Below, piece after piece: positions 1 to 7,225 of a DNA stretch of 64,000 bases. The stretch is from a virus (Duplodnaviria; Caudoviricetes). Each line of letters starts with the position of its first letter. The first letter of the stretch is position 1. The position numbers were made by a program, and so were the translations under genes. Location of the stretch: the IMG/VR virus record IMGVR_UViG_3300043432_000238, positions 1-64,000 of that record. One strand, given 5' to 3'. The notes below the pieces were generated by a model. The model was not told where the DNA came from and did no database searches. It was given only the letters and a program-made list of their open reading frames with translations.

Positions 1-5
1 CCTAG

Positions 6-704
6 CGTCCCCCTCTACGCGCTCGGGACGACCTCGTAGTCGTTGTCGGGGTCGCGGCACATCGTCCGTCCCCCTCTACGCGCTCGGGACGACCGTTGGC
101 GCCAAGATCATGAAAGTGCCGCCAGGGCGTCCCCCTCTACGCGCTCGGGACGACCGTCGTAGCCATGGGACTGCAGGAAGAGGACATCCGTCCCCCTCTA
201 CGCGCTCGGGACGACCCCTGCGGCGGCCTGCACGCCGAAGCTGCCGTGTCGTCCCCCTCTACGCGCTCGGGACGACCCTGCGCGCGGCCTCCGACAATCT
301 GGCGAGCAAGCGTCCCCCTCTACGCGCTCGGGACGACCTCTAGCCCTGCTCTGTGTCGACCACCAGCAGGACGTCCCCCTCTACGCGCTCGGGACGACCG
401 CCTCCTGCCGGAACCAGTCGGTCAGCGACCGCCGTCCCCCTCTACGCGCTCGGGACGACCTCGGGACATGTACTTTCAAACTGTCCTCCATAACGTCCCC
501 CTCTACGCGCTCGGGACGACCGCAGGCGAGTGGCACTGTGCGCAATCCTTCGGACGTCCCCCTCTACGCGCTCGGGACGACCTATATGAATCGCGAAGCA
601 ACGGCTCGCCCTTGTCGTCCCCCTCTACGCGCTCGGGACGACCTCAAACTGCGCGCTCTTCCTTGGGTGCAACATACGTCCCCCTCTACGCGCTCGGGAC
701 GACC
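6..704 (-). CRISPR. CRISPR array, 12 identical 28-nt repeats and 11 spacers of 33 nt (period 61); probably continues past the left edge
   Basis: CGTCCCCCTCTACGCGCTCGGGACGACC starts at 6, 67, 128, 189, 250, 311, 372, 433, 494, 555, 616, 677 with unique spacers. Minus-strand form GGTCGTCCCGAGCGCGTAGAGGGGGACG resembles type I-E repeats (GTCGTCCCC...). Orientation inferred from the leader, cas2 remnant and promoter to the right. Confidence 0.98.
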
Positions 705-750
705 TCTAGCCGCTAAGCGCCTGATCGCTCTCCACAATGTCAAAGATCAC

Positions 751-957
751 GGTCATCCGAAACACGTAGGGATTCCCCCTTCATAGCCCCGTTCCTCCGA
801 ATCCGGCCGAAGCCCGATCAGCGAAAGAACAAAGCTCCGATGCCCCTGGCTCCCTGGAATTGTGAGAGCACTTACCGACGGGCAGCCTCAGGGCCATCCT
901 ATGACCCAGAGGCGGGATTTAACCACGACCTGGACTGGCCGGGACCGCCTTCGCGAT
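751..957 (-). ncRNA. putative tracrRNA/scaffold RNA with anti-repeat at 751-772
   Basis: Plus strand 751-772 GGTCATCCGAAACACGTAGGGA vs repeat nt 1-22: 15 identities, 5 G>A changes (G-U pairs in RNA), 2 mismatches. Hairpins at 801-818 (C-UUCG-G loop) and 892-906. The 5' end is inferred from the promoter. Confidence 0.72.
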
Positions 958-963
958 AGGTGT

Positions 964-991
964 ATATTTGCTATTTCTTGAGCCTTGTCAA
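964..991 (-). promoter_or_regulatory. putative sigma70 promoter driving tracrRNA/leader/array
   Basis: TTGACA at 991-986, then about 17 nt to an AT-rich -10 (AAATAT/AATATA), resembling the alphaproteobacterial CTTGAC-N17-CTATAT pattern. Confidence 0.55.
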
Positions 992-1250
992 TAGAATTCC
1001 GTCGACTTCATACAAATCTCTGGAGACATCGCCGAGAGAACTGATGCCTATGTCACTGGACGCACTTATGTCCCGCGAGAGCATGACTATGCTTCCGTGG
1101 TTCAGTTCTTTGTGCCAGCGCTCAAGGACATCCCAGAGCCGATTTCTTGCGTCGCGGTTTAATTGCGCACTAACATAAATACTTGTTGAAGCCTCGAGTG
1201 ACGGGCATTATAAGGAATCCGGATCTTTTCCAGTCCGAGACGTCCGCGCA
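971..1250 (-). pseudogene. cas2: type I-E cas2 remnant (frameshifted, N-terminus lost)
   Basis: Frame 1207-971 reads CPSLEASTSIYVSAQLNRDARNRLWDVLERWHKELNHGSIVMLSRDISASSDIGISSLGDVSRDLYEVDGILLTRLKK*, matching the I-E Cas2 pattern LE...VYVS...R.R.W.V...W....GS.VM...LG...R.L.D.DG..L. An upstream frame gives DVSDWKRSGFL. In-frame TAA at 1210-1208; no usable ATG. Confidence 0.75.
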
Positions 1251-3308
1251 TCATGACGTCTCTCCTGCTTTGGCAGTGTGACGATCTTTCAGCAGTTTCT
1301 GCTCATTGCGCGCGGCATTGCGGTTTCGCCGCAGCATCTTGCCGCATGGCTCACCATCTTCCCGCAAGTTGATGCAGCGCAATATCTGGCGGCCATCCTT
1401 CATTTGCGGGTTGAGGCCGCCGCAGCTCGAGCACCGCTGGACGATCTGCTCCGTTGGCGCGATCTCCATATAAGCGGCTGGGCCGCGCAGATCCTCCGCC
1501 TTATATTTGATCGTCGTCTGAATGCGGGCCATCGCGACTCGCCGCATCATCTGCCGAGCCGCCTTCAATGAGCGTCTCTTGCCCTGGTGCTCCGGCCTTT
1601 GCCGCTCCTGCTCCTCGGCATCGGGCTTTTTCATCATCTTCGCCACCTGCATCCTCTGCACGGCGACCACATCGAATGTCCTGACGATTTTCGTCGTTAC
1701 CTGATGTAGCCAGTTTTCGCGCAGGTCCGCATCGCGTCCTTCCAATTCGGCCAGTTTGGCGGCGGCTTCGAAGAAGCCCCGTGATTGGGGAAGCCGCGGC
1801 CGTCCAGGCGTTTTGGAGACAATGCCGCGCGCCGCCTTCTGCTGGTGTCGGCGCTTGCCCGCCGCTGCGCGTTTCTGGATGCGTTTCTTGCGCGCTTCGA
1901 TGGCACGCGCTTGCTTGCGCGCGGTGATCTGGTGCAGAGCAAGCACATTGTCATCGATCGGCGGCATCGTCAGGTCCATCCCGTCGAGCTGGTCCTCACC
2001 GGTCTGGCCGCGATCATCGCACCAGGTGATCGGGATTTTGGCCGCAATCTTGATAGCGGCGGTTCGCCCGGTAAGTGGCAATGGCTCCGGTTGATCGACG
2101 GTCCACTGCACGGACAGATACCAGTCTTCGCCACGTCGCCAGATCCGCGCGCCTTCGCATTTTGGCACCGGCCCCTCGCCGCGCAATCCAGCGCGCACGA
2201 AAGGTGGCAGGCGGCATTCCATCCAGCCGACGCCGTTCGGCAACTTTATGCGTCCGTCGACCTCGCTATCCTTTCCTTTGCGCTGCTTGGCTTTGAATTC
2301 GAATTGCGTGTTGGCGAAATAAACCGAGCCTGCGGCATAGTGGTTCGGCTTGTATTTCGCGAACCCCGTCTTGCGGAATGGCAATCCCGCCGCTTGCTTG
2401 CGCAGTTCGCGGTACATATTCTGAATCGCGCCGTCGAGATCGGCGACTGTTTTCTGCGCCGCATGGGACGGCAGGTCGTCGATCCACCTTGTCAGGCCCA
2501 GTCTTTTCAAACGAGCCATGAGCTTTTGCATCTGATGGACGTCGATGAAAATCCTGGGTTGGTTTGCTTTGAGCAGATCATTATAGACGCCGGACGTCTT
2601 GGCGATCACGGCACAGTCACATGGACCCTCGTGCGCTTGGAGCCAGTCGATAAGCGCGTCCGCTTTATCCGTGATCTGCCTGTCCTTCAACCACTGCAGC
2701 GTATGCTGATGGCTGTGGTCGCAGGCAGCGCTGCGCAATGATTTGCGAAGCCGGCCCAATAGGCTGCGCATCTCGCGTTCCCTGAGCGGCACGCCGATGT
2801 CACGCCACGCCCACATCATCTTTGCCAGCCGTGCCGGATCGAGCGGCTTCGGCATCGCGGCGATCTTAGCCAAGGCGGCCTTGACTTCGTCATGCTCCGG
2901 CGTACCCTTCGGCAACTCATCAAGCCGGGTTTTCAGTTGCTCGCGTTCCTCTTCGCGACCGATGCCGGGTTCCTTGATCCATCCCGGCTCCTTCTTCCAC
3001 GCTCCGCCCTTGCCCTTCGTGCCCTTGCGCCATTTGCCTTCGCGATAGACCGTCTCCGCTGTCGCGAAATCGTTTTCGGCGATGCCGGTCCAGATCTTTC
3101 TCCAGCCGAGCCGCGACCGGCTGTTCTCACCGCTATAAGCGGCTTCCTGCAGCGTCAGCAGCAGATTCCAGAGCTGGATGCAGCGCCGCCGCCAGAGGTC
3201 CATGGTGCGCATTTGTGTCCGGCTCGGATAGAGGCGGCATTTGGTGCCGCGTTTCATCGAGCCAAGCGCATTCGTGGCGCGTTCGTCGCGCGTTTCGGCG
3301 ATTGCCAT
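1251..3308 (-). CDS. nuclease-dead TnpB/Cas12-like RNA-guided protein, 685 aa
   Basis: N-terminal KCRLYPSRTQ...LWNLLL (OrfB_IS605 HTH-like), LPSHAAQKTVADLDGAIQN...GFAKYK, and C-terminal Zn ribbon C626/C629/C645/C655. RuvC-I AAIK420, RuvC-II VAVQ551 and RuvC-III RN662RNAARN all lack the acidic catalytic residues. Confidence 0.9.
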   Translation of the reverse strand: MAIAETRDERATNALGSMKRGTKCRLYPSRTQMRTMDLWRRRCIQLWNLLLTLQEAAYSGENSRSRLGWRKIWTGIAENDFATAETVYREGKWRKGTKGKGGAWKKEPGWIKEPGIGREEEREQLKTRLDELPKGTPEHDEVKAALAKIAAMPKPLDPARLAKMMWAWRDIGVPLREREMRSLLGRLRKSLRSAACDHSHQHTLQWLKDRQITDKADALIDWLQAHEGPCDCAVIAKTSGVYNDLLKANQPRIFIDVHQMQKLMARLKRLGLTRWIDDLPSHAAQKTVADLDGAIQNMYRELRKQAAGLPFRKTGFAKYKPNHYAAGSVYFANTQFEFKAKQRKGKDSEVDGRIKLPNGVGWMECRLPPFVRAGLRGEGPVPKCEGARIWRRGEDWYLSVQWTVDQPEPLPLTGRTAAIKIAAKIPITWCDDRGQTGEDQLDGMDLTMPPIDDNVLALHQITARKQARAIEARKKRIQKRAAAGKRRHQQKAARGIVSKTPGRPRLPQSRGFFEAAAKLAELEGRDADLRENWLHQVTTKIVRTFDVVAVQRMQVAKMMKKPDAEEQERQRPEHQGKRRSLKAARQMMRRVAMARIQTTIKYKAEDLRGPAAYMEIAPTEQIVQRCSSCGGLNPQMKDGRQILRCINLREDGEPCGKMLRRNRNAARNEQKLLKDRHTAKAGETS

Positions 3309-3366
3309 GGTTGGGGCCTCGTCTAGGCTTGTTGAGCTATTGCGGTATGCAGGTTGGGCATGCCTT

Positions 3367-3606
3367 TTAAATCCAGGTCTCTACGATCACGGGGTCATCA
3401 TCGGGAAACCTGCCGATGCAGAAATGCCCGTGTGGAATATCGGCGCGGGCCTGGTCGAGATCGTCGTAGACGCCGCCGATGTCTGCCGAAGTTATTGGTG
3501 TCGTGCTGGACTGCATGACGAATTGCCTGCGAACCACGACATGGTCGGGGAAATCCCGCGGATGATCGTAGACCACCCAAAGCGTCAGCAGCCGGTTCGA
3601 CGTCAT
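3367..3606 (-). CDS. phage hypothetical protein (WVVYDHPRDFPDHVVVRRQ)
   Basis: Start overlaps the upstream stop; typical small phage protein. Confidence 0.7.
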   Translation of the reverse strand: MTSNRLLTLWVVYDHPRDFPDHVVVRRQFVMQSSTTPITSADIGGVYDDLDQARADIPHGHFCIGRFPDDDPVIVETWI

Positions 3607-3890: not shown

Positions 3891-4417
3891 CGCGCGCCCC
3901 TCATCACGTCGTAGATCTCTTGAACCGAGTGTTCCGCCGCGAAGACGCCCTCTTTCGTGCGCCATCCCGTGCCGGTAAGCTGCGGAGGCCAAAGAGTGAA
4001 GCCGCTGCCGCTGCTGTAACGGATCAGCGCGACCAGCCCGCGCCTTTCAATCCAGGCGCGCAGATTCTGGTCCTGGTGAGCGTCAGGATATTTCGGGTCG
4101 CACCAGATCTGCACGATCGGCACGCGGTGCGTCTCGCCCGTCTCGTTATCTTGCGCCGTGATGAATTCCGGCGACGGATCGAGCACATAGTGCGAGCGGT
4201 CAGGCCGGCTGAGATCGCCGGCGTCGTCATTTATCAGCCATCCGCACGACCAGACCCGGCATGGAAACGGGCGCGATGGATAGATCGCACAGCCCTTGGC
4301 GTGGCGCTGGTGCTGGCAGCGCTGATTGCTCGGCTTATTGAACATCGGCGCTGGCATCAGCCGGCAGCATAGTTGGCAGTCGCCGCAGCGGCGTTGGATG
4401 GCAATGGAGTCAGTCAT
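3887..4417 (-). CDS. YkgJ-like CxxCxxCC metal-binding protein
   Basis: RRCGDCQLCC...CxxxxxxxGCAIYPSRPFPCRVWSC motif. Confidence 0.7.
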   Translation of the reverse strand: MTDSIAIQRRCGDCQLCCRLMPAPMFNKPSNQRCQHQRHAKGCAIYPSRPFPCRVWSCGWLINDDAGDLSRPDRSHYVLDPSPEFITAQDNETGETHRVPIVQIWCDPKYPDAHQDQNLRAWIERRGLVALIRYSSGSGFTLWPPQLTGTGWRTKEGVFAAEHSVQEIYDVMRGAR

Positions 4418-5075
4418 TGGGCGCCCCGAAGCAGCGATCAAGCAGCGAGGTGAAGCGCATCACCTGCGCGCCGAGTTCCTTCAATGCCGCCGGCCCTTCT
4501 GCGCGTGCCGGTTCCTCCAGCAGGGGCAGGCCGGATTCAACCGACTGCTCGACCTCTTCGCGCGTCGCTGGTCGCCCCTCGCGGAAGAACGCAATCTCCA
4601 GCGGGTCGCCGACGCGGATCAGCACGCCGCCGGGCGCGCGGAACACCGAATAGTGCCGCGTAAGCCAGAGCAGGCTGACGCCGGGATTGCGCTCGATCAT
4701 GAGGCCGGCCGGCTTCTTCGTCGGCATATCCTCCATGCCGCGCATATTGCGCTTTGCCATGGGCCGCGTCAGGAACGGACAGGCATTGACGGCGAACTCG
4801 GCGCAACTGCGATGGCTCGGCGGCTCCGAAGAGACGCGGTTGACGCCGCACATCGGGCCGATGACGAAGGCGAGAAGAGATCCCAGCGGCTGGCCGCAGA
4901 GCCAGCAGCGCTTGTGCCGGATGGCGCGACGGAATTTCGCCGGATCGGCGGCCTGGAACACCGGTTTGCCGTCGAGCCAGTCGACGAACCAGGGCACCGG
5001 AAAGCCGCGCTCATCGATCGGAAGAGCCTTGAAGCGGTCCGGCAATGGTGGCAGGTCGGTGCGAAGCTCAGCCAT
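4410..5075 (-). CDS. conserved phage hypothetical protein
   Basis: LPIDERGFPVPWFV...CWLCG...FVIGPMC...EPPSH...CPFL; coupled with its neighbours. Confidence 0.7.
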   Translation of the reverse strand: MAELRTDLPPLPDRFKALPIDERGFPVPWFVDWLDGKPVFQAADPAKFRRAIRHKRCWLCGQPLGSLLAFVIGPMCGVNRVSSEPPSHRSCAEFAVNACPFLTRPMAKRNMRGMEDMPTKKPAGLMIERNPGVSLLWLTRHYSVFRAPGGVLIRVGDPLEIAFFREGRPATREEVEQSVESGLPLLEEPARAEGPAALKELGAQVMRFTSLLDRCFGAPND

Positions 5076-5083
5076 TTCGAACC

Positions 5084-5706
5084 TCAATAATATCTGATCG
5101 CCATCAAGATCCGCGCCGCCCAGGCAATCGCCCGGTCATATTGCACCTCGCCGCCATTCTCATGCGGGATCAGCGTCCAGCCCGCGTTGCGTCCACGCAC
5201 GAGCCGCCGCAGAAGCACCGGCCCATCGGCGACGGCGACGAGGCAGTCCGTGCCATGGGCGTTGTCGAGATCCTCGGGCCGGAAGCGGTTGCCGATCAGC
5301 ACGGTGCCGGGCTCGAAACCGCCAACGGCCGCGTCGATCCGCACGGCGACCGGATCATCGCCTGCGACCTCCAGGTTGACTTTGGCTCCAGCCTCCTGCT
5401 CGCGGGAGATGATCCGTCCGTGCTCGTCGGCGCGGCCGAGCAGCGGGATCTCACGGACGCCCCGGGCGCCGACCAGGTCGATGGGCTCGACCGTCAGCGC
5501 GTGGGCGATCTTCTGCAACCACTCCATCGAGACGGTCATATTGTCGGTCTCAAGCCGCTGGATGGTCTGCGGGGTGGTGTGTATCTTGTGCGCGAGCTGC
5601 TTCAGCGTCATGCCGCGCAGCTTGCGGAACTCCCGGATTCTGGTCTGCATGCCGATGGTCTTCGGCCGGATCGCCGAGGCGGAGTACGGTGTGTCGTGGA
5701 TCGTCA
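5084..5706 (-). CDS. XRE-family HTH transcriptional regulator with S24-like C-terminus (start uncertain)
   Basis: RIREFRKLRGMTLKQLAHKIHTTPQTIQRLET helix-turn-helix. Confidence 0.8.
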
Positions 5707-5924
5707 TCTGTCTTGAACCTGACATATTTCCTGACCATGAGTGCCGCTGGGATGCCAGGAGCCGATAGGGCACGAAACTCCAGACACCCCAGCGGTCGCT
5801 ACCCCGCTACTGCTTGTCGCGTGCACCCGTATCCGGTTCCACGCTGTCGACCACCCACGGTGCTGGGCCGGTGGCAGTCGAATTCCCAGGCCAGCCCTTA
5901 TCCGTTTGGCGAACGAGATAAGGC

Positions 5925-6275
5925 TTACTGGCCTGGGTTCCCCGGTCTGGTAAGAGAGCCGGGAACCTCGCCCGCAGGAGACACTGTTTCTTCTCCTGCG
6001 GGCCGCTCGGGCTTCATGGGCCCAAGCGTGGCGATGGAGGGGAGTTCATCGCCGGAAACCGTCAATTCGTGATCGGGACTTCCCTCGCGCCCCGTGCAAT
6101 GCTCGCAATAGCAGAGCATGTTCTTGCCGTTGCCGCTCCAGATCATCAGCGGGATCTCGTCTTCCCGGATCGGCTTGCGGCAACGCGAGCAGGTGTCGTC
6201 GCAGGTCAGGATGTGCCACTGATCGTTGGGCAGGATGCCGCCGGGGACGAAATTCTCGAGGGTGAACTCAGGCAT
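5925..6275 (-). CDS. Zn-finger hypothetical protein
   Basis: CSRC...CEHC; TGATG coupling with the upstream ORF. Confidence 0.6.
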   Translation of the reverse strand: MPEFTLENFVPGGILPNDQWHILTCDDTCSRCRKPIREDEIPLMIWSGNGKNMLCYCEHCTGREGSPDHELTVSGDELPSIATLGPMKPERPAGEETVSPAGEVPGSLTRPGNPGQ

Positions 6276-6541
6276 CAGGCACGCTCCGCTGGTTGCAGGC
6301 GCAAAATGATCCGGCGGGCCTCCTGCACATCCGAAGATGCAGCGGCGGTGAAAATCTCCTCGTCGGTCGGTGCCCGGAGCCGCATATCGTCCCCGAAAAC
6401 ATTCAGGGATGCGCAGCGGATGCACAGTGAGAAATCGCCGGGTGTCGGCTTGTCCGGCCCATTGCAACTGTCCATCACATGTCCACATTCGCAGCAGGCG
6501 GAGGACGGTACCGTGCTCATGACCTCAAAGCTTTGCTTCAT
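6275..6541 (-). CDS. Zn-finger hypothetical protein
   Basis: CCECG...PTPGDFSLCIRC motif. Confidence 0.65.
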   Translation of the reverse strand: MKQSFEVMSTVPSSACCECGHVMDSCNGPDKPTPGDFSLCIRCASLNVFGDDMRLRAPTDEEIFTAAASSDVQEARRIILRLQPAERA

Positions 6542-6800
6542 TGCCGCCCTCAATCGTGCGCAGATCCGTGCGCTCGCTGAGCTTGATGATCCTGATCGTG
6601 ACGCCCGCGATTTCGGCGAGCATCTCGGCCTGCTCGGTGATCCATTCCAGCCGCTGCGGATCTGCCGCGATCAGCGGGTAGGACACGCCGCCGATGGTGA
6701 TGGCGCAGATGCCCTCGCCATGCTCGGTGACGCTGACGGCCGCCCAGATCACGTCGATACAGGCGAGATGGTTCCGCGGTTTCAGGATAGCGATCGTCAT
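6525..6800 (-). CDS. phage hypothetical protein
   Basis: ORF with RBS, overlapping the next gene. Confidence 0.65.
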   Translation of the reverse strand: MTIAILKPRNHLACIDVIWAAVSVTEHGEGICAITIGGVSYPLIAADPQRLEWITEQAEMLAEIAGVTIRIIKLSERTDLRTIEGGNEAKL

Positions 6801-6877
6801 GTCAGACTTCCTGCCGTACGCAATAGAATTGCCCGGCCGCTTGGTTCATGGCCGCACGGCCGGGCTCCCCGGTAAAA

Positions 6878-7225
6878 CTATTCGCTGCCGCCGGCGGAAT
6901 GGCCGAGCGGACCGTTCGGATTGGGATCACGCACGATGGCATGGTTCCAGCAATAGGACGCGATCTCGGTGGGAAGATTGTCCGCGTTGCAGCCGCCTTC
7001 CGCGCTCACGCGCTCATAGGTCCGGCGCGAATGCTCTTCGGCTGCCTTGTCGGTATTGATGACCGGCGCGGGCGCTTCACCCTTCTCCTTCGGGCAGGCG
7101 CCGAAACGAGGCGTGCCGGCGCCGCGCAGATCCCAGTCGCAGGTGGGAGAGGCCCGCTCCTGCGCCATTGCGGAGCTTGCCGAGAAGCCCAGGACCAAGG
7201 CCATCATGATCAATGTTTTGTTCAT
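6878..7225 (-). CDS. secreted hypothetical protein
   Basis: Signal peptide MNKTLIMMALVLGFSASSAMA; RBS GGAGAC. Confidence 0.65.
   Translation of the reverse strand: MNKTLIMMALVLGFSASSAMAQERASPTCDWDLRGAGTPRFGACPKEKGEAPAPVINTDKAAEEHSRRTYERVSAEGGCNADNLPTEIASYCWNHAIVRDPNPNGPLGHSAGGSE

Follow-up and report, generated by a model that had tools for sequence, protein, structure and literature searches.

The scar of a probable deletion in the cas1e-cas2e module of a phage CRISPR-Cas locus with a Cas12f-like effector

Background

Type I-E CRISPR-Cas systems associate Cascade and Cas3 with an adaptation module in which cas1e and cas2e follow each other, in canonical order, toward a plain leader and an array of 28-29-nt repeats and 32-33-nt spacers, with a Cas6e-type hairpin in the repeat and degenerate repeats at the trailer end. 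Type V-F loci place a Cas12f effector with a TnpB-like zinc ribbon upstream of a tracrRNA and an array, and those of archaea carry cas1-cas2-cas4. Several other type V groups (V-M Cas12m, V-C and the predicted V-O and V-P) have an inactivated RuvC and are associated with mobile elements (PMC12669027, PMC11656645), and interference by binding has been reported for two of these nuclease-inactive effectors, Cas12m and Cas12c (PMC12669027, PMC11656645). According to the literature, V-M loci lack both adaptation genes and tracrRNA. In Thermus Lalka phages, the TnpB-derived effector Cas12r, an active nuclease that does not need a tracrRNA, is encoded beside an I-E-like array (29-bp repeats, 32-33-bp spacers) without adaptation genes; its spacers point to mobile-element conflict, and spacer supply by the I-E system of the host has been proposed (bioRxiv 10.64898/2026.04.20.719267). 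Supply in trans has been shown for IV-A3 plasmids, according to work cited in PMC11656645.

The locus analyzed here shares traits with each of these systems. It lies at the beginning of a stretch of 64,000 nucleotides (hereafter, the window) that corresponds to positions 1 to 64,000 of the IMG/VR virus record IMGVR_UViG_3300043432_000238. An earlier note on this DNA had described a frameshifted type I-E cas2 between a dead TnpB and a CRISPR array, and had regarded the ensemble as a snapshot of the de novo formation of a type V system from a class 1 array. In this phage genome, a dead I-E cas2 does indeed neighbour both an I-E-style array and a TnpB/Cas12-like gene predicted to be nuclease-dead. 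Our comparative analysis indicates that positions 971-1254 of the window (minus strand) are very probably the scar left by one deletion of roughly 887 bp, which struck the adaptation module of a CRISPR-Cas locus carried by the phage. What is recorded here is thus the recent decay of an established, V-F-like phage system, and no birth of a type V system is seen.

Results

The carrier of the CRISPR locus is a temperate phage. The complete record spans 79,332 bp (99% completeness, CheckV) and encodes an integrase, RecT, a large terminase, a head-tail adaptor and tail proteins. The array, of which the window holds the leader-proximal part (Table 1), resumes past the contig ends at genome positions 77927-79332; since the terminal 126 nt (genome 79207-79332) recur at positions 6-131, the genome closes through the array. 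In total, the array comprises about 30 perfect repeats plus three degenerate repeats at the trailer end (genome 77927-78075, outside the window), which confirms its polarity: the leader-proximal end is at 717 and the minus strand is the transcribed one. Repeat length, spacer length and degenerate trailer repeats are all those of an I-E-type array. The first 5 nt of the contig match the end of the spacer two units further back, which suggests that array variants with a two-spacer deletion were present in the sampled population.

Table 1. Features of the phage CRISPR-Cas locus, in window coordinates.
Feature	Position	Strand	Description and basis
CRISPR array, leader-proximal part	1..717	-	12 identical 28-nt repeats, 33-nt spacers, period 61
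Putative tracrRNA-like structured ncRNA	728..957	-	Invariant blocks and compensatory stems across 7 loci
Predicted anti-repeat	751..772	-	Pairs with repeat nt 1-22; first repeat copy at 704-683
cas2e remnant	971..1198	-	Codons 26-100 plus stop TAG (973-971)
TTGACA, -35-like box	986..991	-	Inside last cas2 codons; reads toward tracr region and array
Deletion junction	1198..1198	-	Single shared C; blastn break points and side-by-side sequences
cas1e remnant	1198..1254	-	Codons 1-19; start ATG at 1254-1252
Cas12f-like (TnpB-derived) effector	1251..3308	-	Intact, 685 aa; profile matches and alignments

The full-length effector is 85-86% identical to its orthologues, which measure 685 aa in the two closest relatives of the locus (L013 and L014). 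It matches the TnpB family NF040570 with 107 bits and, with 639 bits (E=1e-192, positions 10-544 of 549), the PADLOC/CasFinder profile 'Cas12_x2, CAS-V-F' (PDLC01226); the Cas12m profile of V-M systems is not its best match. The zinc ribbon is retained. In contrast to V-F, the RuvC D-E-D triad, located by alignment to ISDra2 TnpB and across the family, carries substitutions at all three positions in each of the six members aligned (D to K, E to Q/P, D to N/T), and the effector family is therefore predicted to be nuclease-dead. A DUF2695 domain (Pfam E=2e-10) occupies residues 183-236 (window 2601-2762), within an insertion of roughly 100 residues that is found solely in the subclade of the window, L013 and L014 and is absent from the effectors of L011 and L015. 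Our literature search returned no paper naming this effector/Cas1e-Cas2e family, which may equal a named V-U, V-O or V-P variant.

Downstream of the effector, the 78-codon open frame at 1207-974 (minus strand), in which the C-terminal region of an I-E Cas2 had been recognized before, reaches 37.5 bits against the Cas2e profile TIGR01873 (positions 22-87 of 87), with a curated cut-off of 33.15 bits, and also matches PF09707 (E=3e-9). The Cas2 profile match of this frame, on which the earlier note had made its proposal depend, is hence significant (E=2e-9). The translated frame is 92% identical to the intact 100-aa Cas2e of a related contig, and searches with it retrieve intact 100-aa Cas2e proteins at 63-92% identity. 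The 75 codons of cas2 proper contain no internal stop or frameshift. The TAA previously reported as an in-frame stop is present at 1210-1208, just ahead of the cas2 frame, but it sits in cas1-derived sequence. A complete Cas2e has about 95-100 aa, a start codon and an N-terminal beta strand; the stretch encoding the true N-terminus is deleted here, the sole in-frame start is an internal ATG that would give 37 aa, and the remnant is a cas2e pseudogene fragment rather than a functional member of the family.

The nature of the sequence upstream of this fragment was settled by comparison with L013 and L014, both of which show 83-86% nucleotide identity to the window. In blastn alignments, window positions 3331-1198 correspond to L013 3561-5694 (83%) and positions 1198-676 to L013 6582-7115 (86%), and L014 yields equivalent break points. 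Relative to L013, therefore, the window carries one clean 887-bp deletion (L013 5695-6581), which has removed cas1 codons 20-290 together with cas2 codons 1-25 and has joined cas1 codon 19 to cas2 codon 26, with no microhomology beyond the single shared C. L013 and L014 begin their cas1 with the same 19 residues that the remnant encodes, and in all three the ATG overlaps the effector stop (ATGA). The remnant now reads into a 31-codon junk ORF (1254-1159), in a third frame distinct from the effector-frame and cas2-frame readings. Hence, what had been taken for a frameshifted Cas2 N-terminus (1250-1199, with a DVSD..R.GFL segment at about 1244-1212) turns out to be the beginning of cas1 (19 codons) translated in the frame of the effector. 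Since the frame-1 peptide (1250-1173) had no match in NCBIfam at E<=10 and the frame-3 peptide is too short to score, it was nucleotide homology that decided between cas1 and cas2. The likeness of DVSD..R.GFL to a Cas2 motif is coincidental. A programmed frameshift or a fused Cas1-Cas2 can be rejected as well, since 271 codons of cas1 are missing from the DNA altogether. No Cas1e match was found elsewhere in the 79-kb phage genome, and the remnant accordingly has no adjacent cas1e partner. Searches of the same 79 kb for Cas6e and Cas7e were likewise negative, the canonical I-E locus L066 serving as positive comparison.

The pattern of substitution places the deletion in time. Over cas2 codons 26-100, the divergence between window and L013 is almost wholly synonymous (dN/dS 0.041/0.67, about 0.06), as compared with 0.075/0.98 for the intact pair L013-L014 over the same stretch and with about 0.1, in a similar range, for the effector. 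This divergence must thus have accumulated mostly under purifying selection, so that, compared with the separation of this phage from the L013 lineage, the deletion is recent. The deletion allele is known from one assembly only, and a search of other metagenome contigs, from which the source record may be excluded, did not find its junction 24-mer. The contig start, moreover, points to a heterogeneous array region in the sample. One could therefore suppose that the real population has an intact cas1-cas2 and that the contig lost the 887 bp by mis-assembly or represents a minority variant. Either is very improbable, because the missing stretch is unique sequence with no flanking repeats, which gives an assembler no reason to collapse it across 1 nt of microhomology, and because the flanks are collinear with the relatives at an identity too low for a chimera of them.

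Seven related loci (L013, L014, L015, L011, L012, L020 and L104) share the order effector, cas1e, cas2e, ncRNA and array; L104 is near-identical to L012, and the set thus represents six sequence-distinct phage or metagenome contigs. Part of them came to light through the Cas2e frame, and effector searches contributed further loci of this order. All their elements are co-oriented, with effectors of 580-685 aa, a cas1 gene encoding 285-290 aa that starts by an ATGA overlap on the effector stop, and about 250-300 nt of non-coding DNA between cas2 and the 61-bp-period array. Their Cas1 proteins are Cas1e (282-291 bits) and their Cas2 proteins Cas2e, and cas1e is found beside cas2e in 7/7 relatives where the region is covered. 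The question of whether related phages keep an intact cas2 is thus answered in the affirmative, with a 100-aa Cas2e in each of the seven. Given that the effectors linked to this common module diverge down to 42% identity, the association has to be old and the copy in the window a recent degradation product of it.

Three loci show variations on this arrangement. In L015 (1519-1728; L015/P0007 lineage), a 69-aa ORF with no family match lies between effector and cas1, and this ORF is absent from the window, L013 and L014. L102 (Ga0224722_1002373, 3959-7073) has a 738-aa effector and, 458 nt further on, the tracr-like RNA of the family ahead of an array with a period of 61/62 bp. Neither cas1 or cas2 nor any detectable trace of them is present; the adaptation module has been lost, or was never present, in this second lineage. 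L111 (WSSedL2TaDRAFT_1001176, 267-2375) encodes a protein of 489 aa that is distantly related to the effector (28-47% identity in segments) and in which the RuvC-III aspartate also appears replaced; it lies upstream of an array whose canonical I-E repeat bears a Cas6e-type hairpin. The region between the two carries a GAAGGGGGAAT motif, like the tracr of the family, and under the chimera reading discussed below L111 may represent an earlier stage.

The region between cas2 and the array is predicted to be a tracrRNA-like gene rather than a plain leader. Its blocks and stems are conserved although the effectors of the compared loci are only 42-57% identical, and the copy in the window folds with z=-3.0; an Rfam search of positions 1-3600 returned no family match. 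The predicted anti-repeat/repeat helix comprises 20 pairs, eight of them changed on both sides, and 95.7% of its cells are paired, as opposed to 26-54% in slid registers. Such a covarying helix is consistent with the anti-repeat of a V-F tracrRNA pairing with its repeat. A promoter overlapping the last cas2 codons, as proposed before, is plausible: no aligned locus departs from TTGACA, not even L102, which lacks cas2. The -10 element, on the other hand, is weak and not well defined, and a generic sigma-70 scan did not call this promoter. It called only a plus-strand site at 968-997 (TTGCTA-N18-TAGAAT), overlapping the cas2 stop and on the strand opposite to the array, in a region where about one such site is expected by chance. 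Judging from the alignment, the end of cas2 would double as a promoter element, which would explain why that end must stay.

A spacer at genome 78686-78718 (outside the window; L016 14686-14718) matches the gene for a 66-aa o-spanin-like lipoprotein, which adjoins the lysis genes of related phages. Identity amounts to 27-28/33 in L012/L104 and 25-26/33 in L011 and L015, against a background of about 20-21. The match is nearly perfect over the PAM-proximal 20 nt of the spacer, with mostly distal mismatches and a CCC(G) 5' flank, and the last repeat base is matched in this one protospacer-like target, as in type I-E. The phage's own o-spanin-like homologue (genome 77188-77304) has diverged at the spacer site and shows no match. 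No perfect protospacer was found for any spacer searched, and no self-targets either; both array halves gave chance-level matches only against INPHARED phages, and 23-24-mers from two leader-proximal spacers had no exact match in IMG/VR. The match to a lysis-region gene of related phages fits phage-phage competition.

With regard to the origin of the I-E components, the effector is missing from all of the 80 best cellular Cas1e loci, where the closest Cas1 is only 63% identical to that of the phages. In a quick maximum-likelihood tree with midpoint root, the phage Cas1 proteins group together in a single clade (SH-aLRT 100), whose sister group (98) consists of Daeguia caeni and a Hyphomicrobiaceae MAG whose locus is a canonical cas3-cse1-cas7-cas5-cas6e-cas1 I-E system. 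The repeats of these cellular loci have length and end motifs in common with the phage repeats, but differ in the central hairpin. Adaptation module and array descend, as far as the family is concerned, from a class 1 I-E system, sister to the I-E systems of Hyphomicrobiales. The simplest reading would be that an I-E adaptation/array unit was captured once and long ago, probably in phages of Hyphomicrobiales.

Discussion

The family-level descent outlined above upholds one part of what the earlier note had inferred, namely that a phage captured elements of a class 1 I-E locus. According to that note, however, it was the cas2-leader-array end of such a locus that the phage took, and a TnpB then took this end over. 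The cas2 remnant, the 28-nt repeat with its 61-bp period and the Cas1e/Cas2e ancestry are all I-E-like, as this would entail, and the effector is TnpB-derived. Yet the segment adjoining the effector stop is the start of cas1, and not the N-terminus of Cas2, so that what was captured went beyond the cas2-leader-array end. Moreover, relatives with effectors of as little as 42% identity already possess the complete effector-cas1-cas2-tracr-array unit, a co-evolved anti-repeat is present, and neither the absence of the effector from the cellular loci nor the distance to the nearest cellular Cas1 is in keeping with a fresh acquisition. A de novo type V snapshot is thus extremely unlikely, and a single deletion in an intact ancestral unit explains the window.

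The deletion reading can be summarized as follows. The ancestral order would have been that preserved in related phages: a nuclease-dead Cas12f-like effector, cas1e, cas2e, the tracrRNA-like gene and the array, all co-oriented. The deletion would then have joined cas1 and cas2 in different frames, as a result of which neither protein can be made. The 3' end of cas2 would survive both because the deletion is recent and because its last roughly 20-40 nt hold the -35 box, which would drive transcription of tracrRNA and pre-crRNA alike. The 25 N-terminal residues missing from Cas2 comprise the first beta strand of its ferredoxin fold, which bears a conserved acidic residue. Although its cas2 codons are free of stops and frameshifts and its cas1 start retains translational coupling to the effector stop, the idea that the remnant still encodes a useful product, whether the C-terminal part of a truncated Cas2 or the 31-aa Cas1'-junk peptide, can practically be dismissed, given the loss of those 25 residues, a cas2-frame start codon yielding a mere 37 aa, the absence of Cas1 as obligate partner and the recent deletion, which explains the lack of decay.

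Set against the described systems, the locus resembles type I-E in its Cas2e-like remnant, in the canonical order of Cas1e and Cas2e toward the array in its relatives and in its repeat length and period. It differs in the lack of cas7e and cas6e matches, in the drifted Cas6e-type hairpin of its repeat, in the tracrRNA-like gene that takes the place of the leader and in the truncation of both cas1 and cas2. With type V-F it shares a small effector with V-F profile match and TnpB-like zinc ribbon, upstream of tracrRNA and array, but its RuvC triad is replaced family-wide and its adaptation module is of I-E type. An inactivated RuvC on a mobile element is also a trait of the nuclease-inactive type V systems (PMC12669027, PMC11656645), and by analogy the phage effector would probably block the transcription or replication of competitors by binding. 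Like Cas12r (bioRxiv 10.64898/2026.04.20.719267), it is a TnpB-derived phage effector beside an I-E-like array devoid of adaptation genes, but it appears to be dead and tracr-linked, whereas Cas12r is active and independent of tracrRNA. Furthermore, the relatives of the window phage physically carry I-E Cas1-Cas2, and the window shows their loss directly.

In a broader frame, the whole phage family might be a stable class 1/class 2 chimera, in which a TnpB-derived dead effector replaced Cascade-Cas3 beside one captured Hyphomicrobiales-type I-E Cas1-Cas2-array unit and then evolved a tracrRNA with an anti-repeat tracking the I-E-derived repeat; this phage and L102 would have shed the adaptation genes while keeping the guide module, perhaps refilled by host I-E integrases. 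We give this account, taken as a whole, somewhat less than an even chance. Lacking cas1-cas2, the phage is unable to acquire spacers by itself, and its array would now be fixed, save for spacers that a host I-E Cas1-Cas2 might supply in trans. By analogy with Cas12r, such a supply by the host integrase is conceivable. By analogy with Cas12m and Cas12c, the effector-tracr-crRNA complex may still bind DNA matching the roughly 30 spacers, and would in this way silence or exclude competing phages without cutting.

Conclusions

As an instance of gene decay, the scar is ordinary. It is of value as a dated marker of the recent loss of acquisition genes in one phage lineage, in which the effector, the tracrRNA and an array of roughly 30 spacers have been kept. 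With their 580-740 aa and natural arrays, such dead, tracr-guided effectors are also candidates for compact tools that bind DNA. More generally, the genomes of the family are direct evidence that an I-E-type integrase and array can serve a miniature nuclease-dead type V effector, and the family thereby bears on how type V systems recruit adaptation modules and on whether host I-E machinery refills phage arrays without cas1-cas2.
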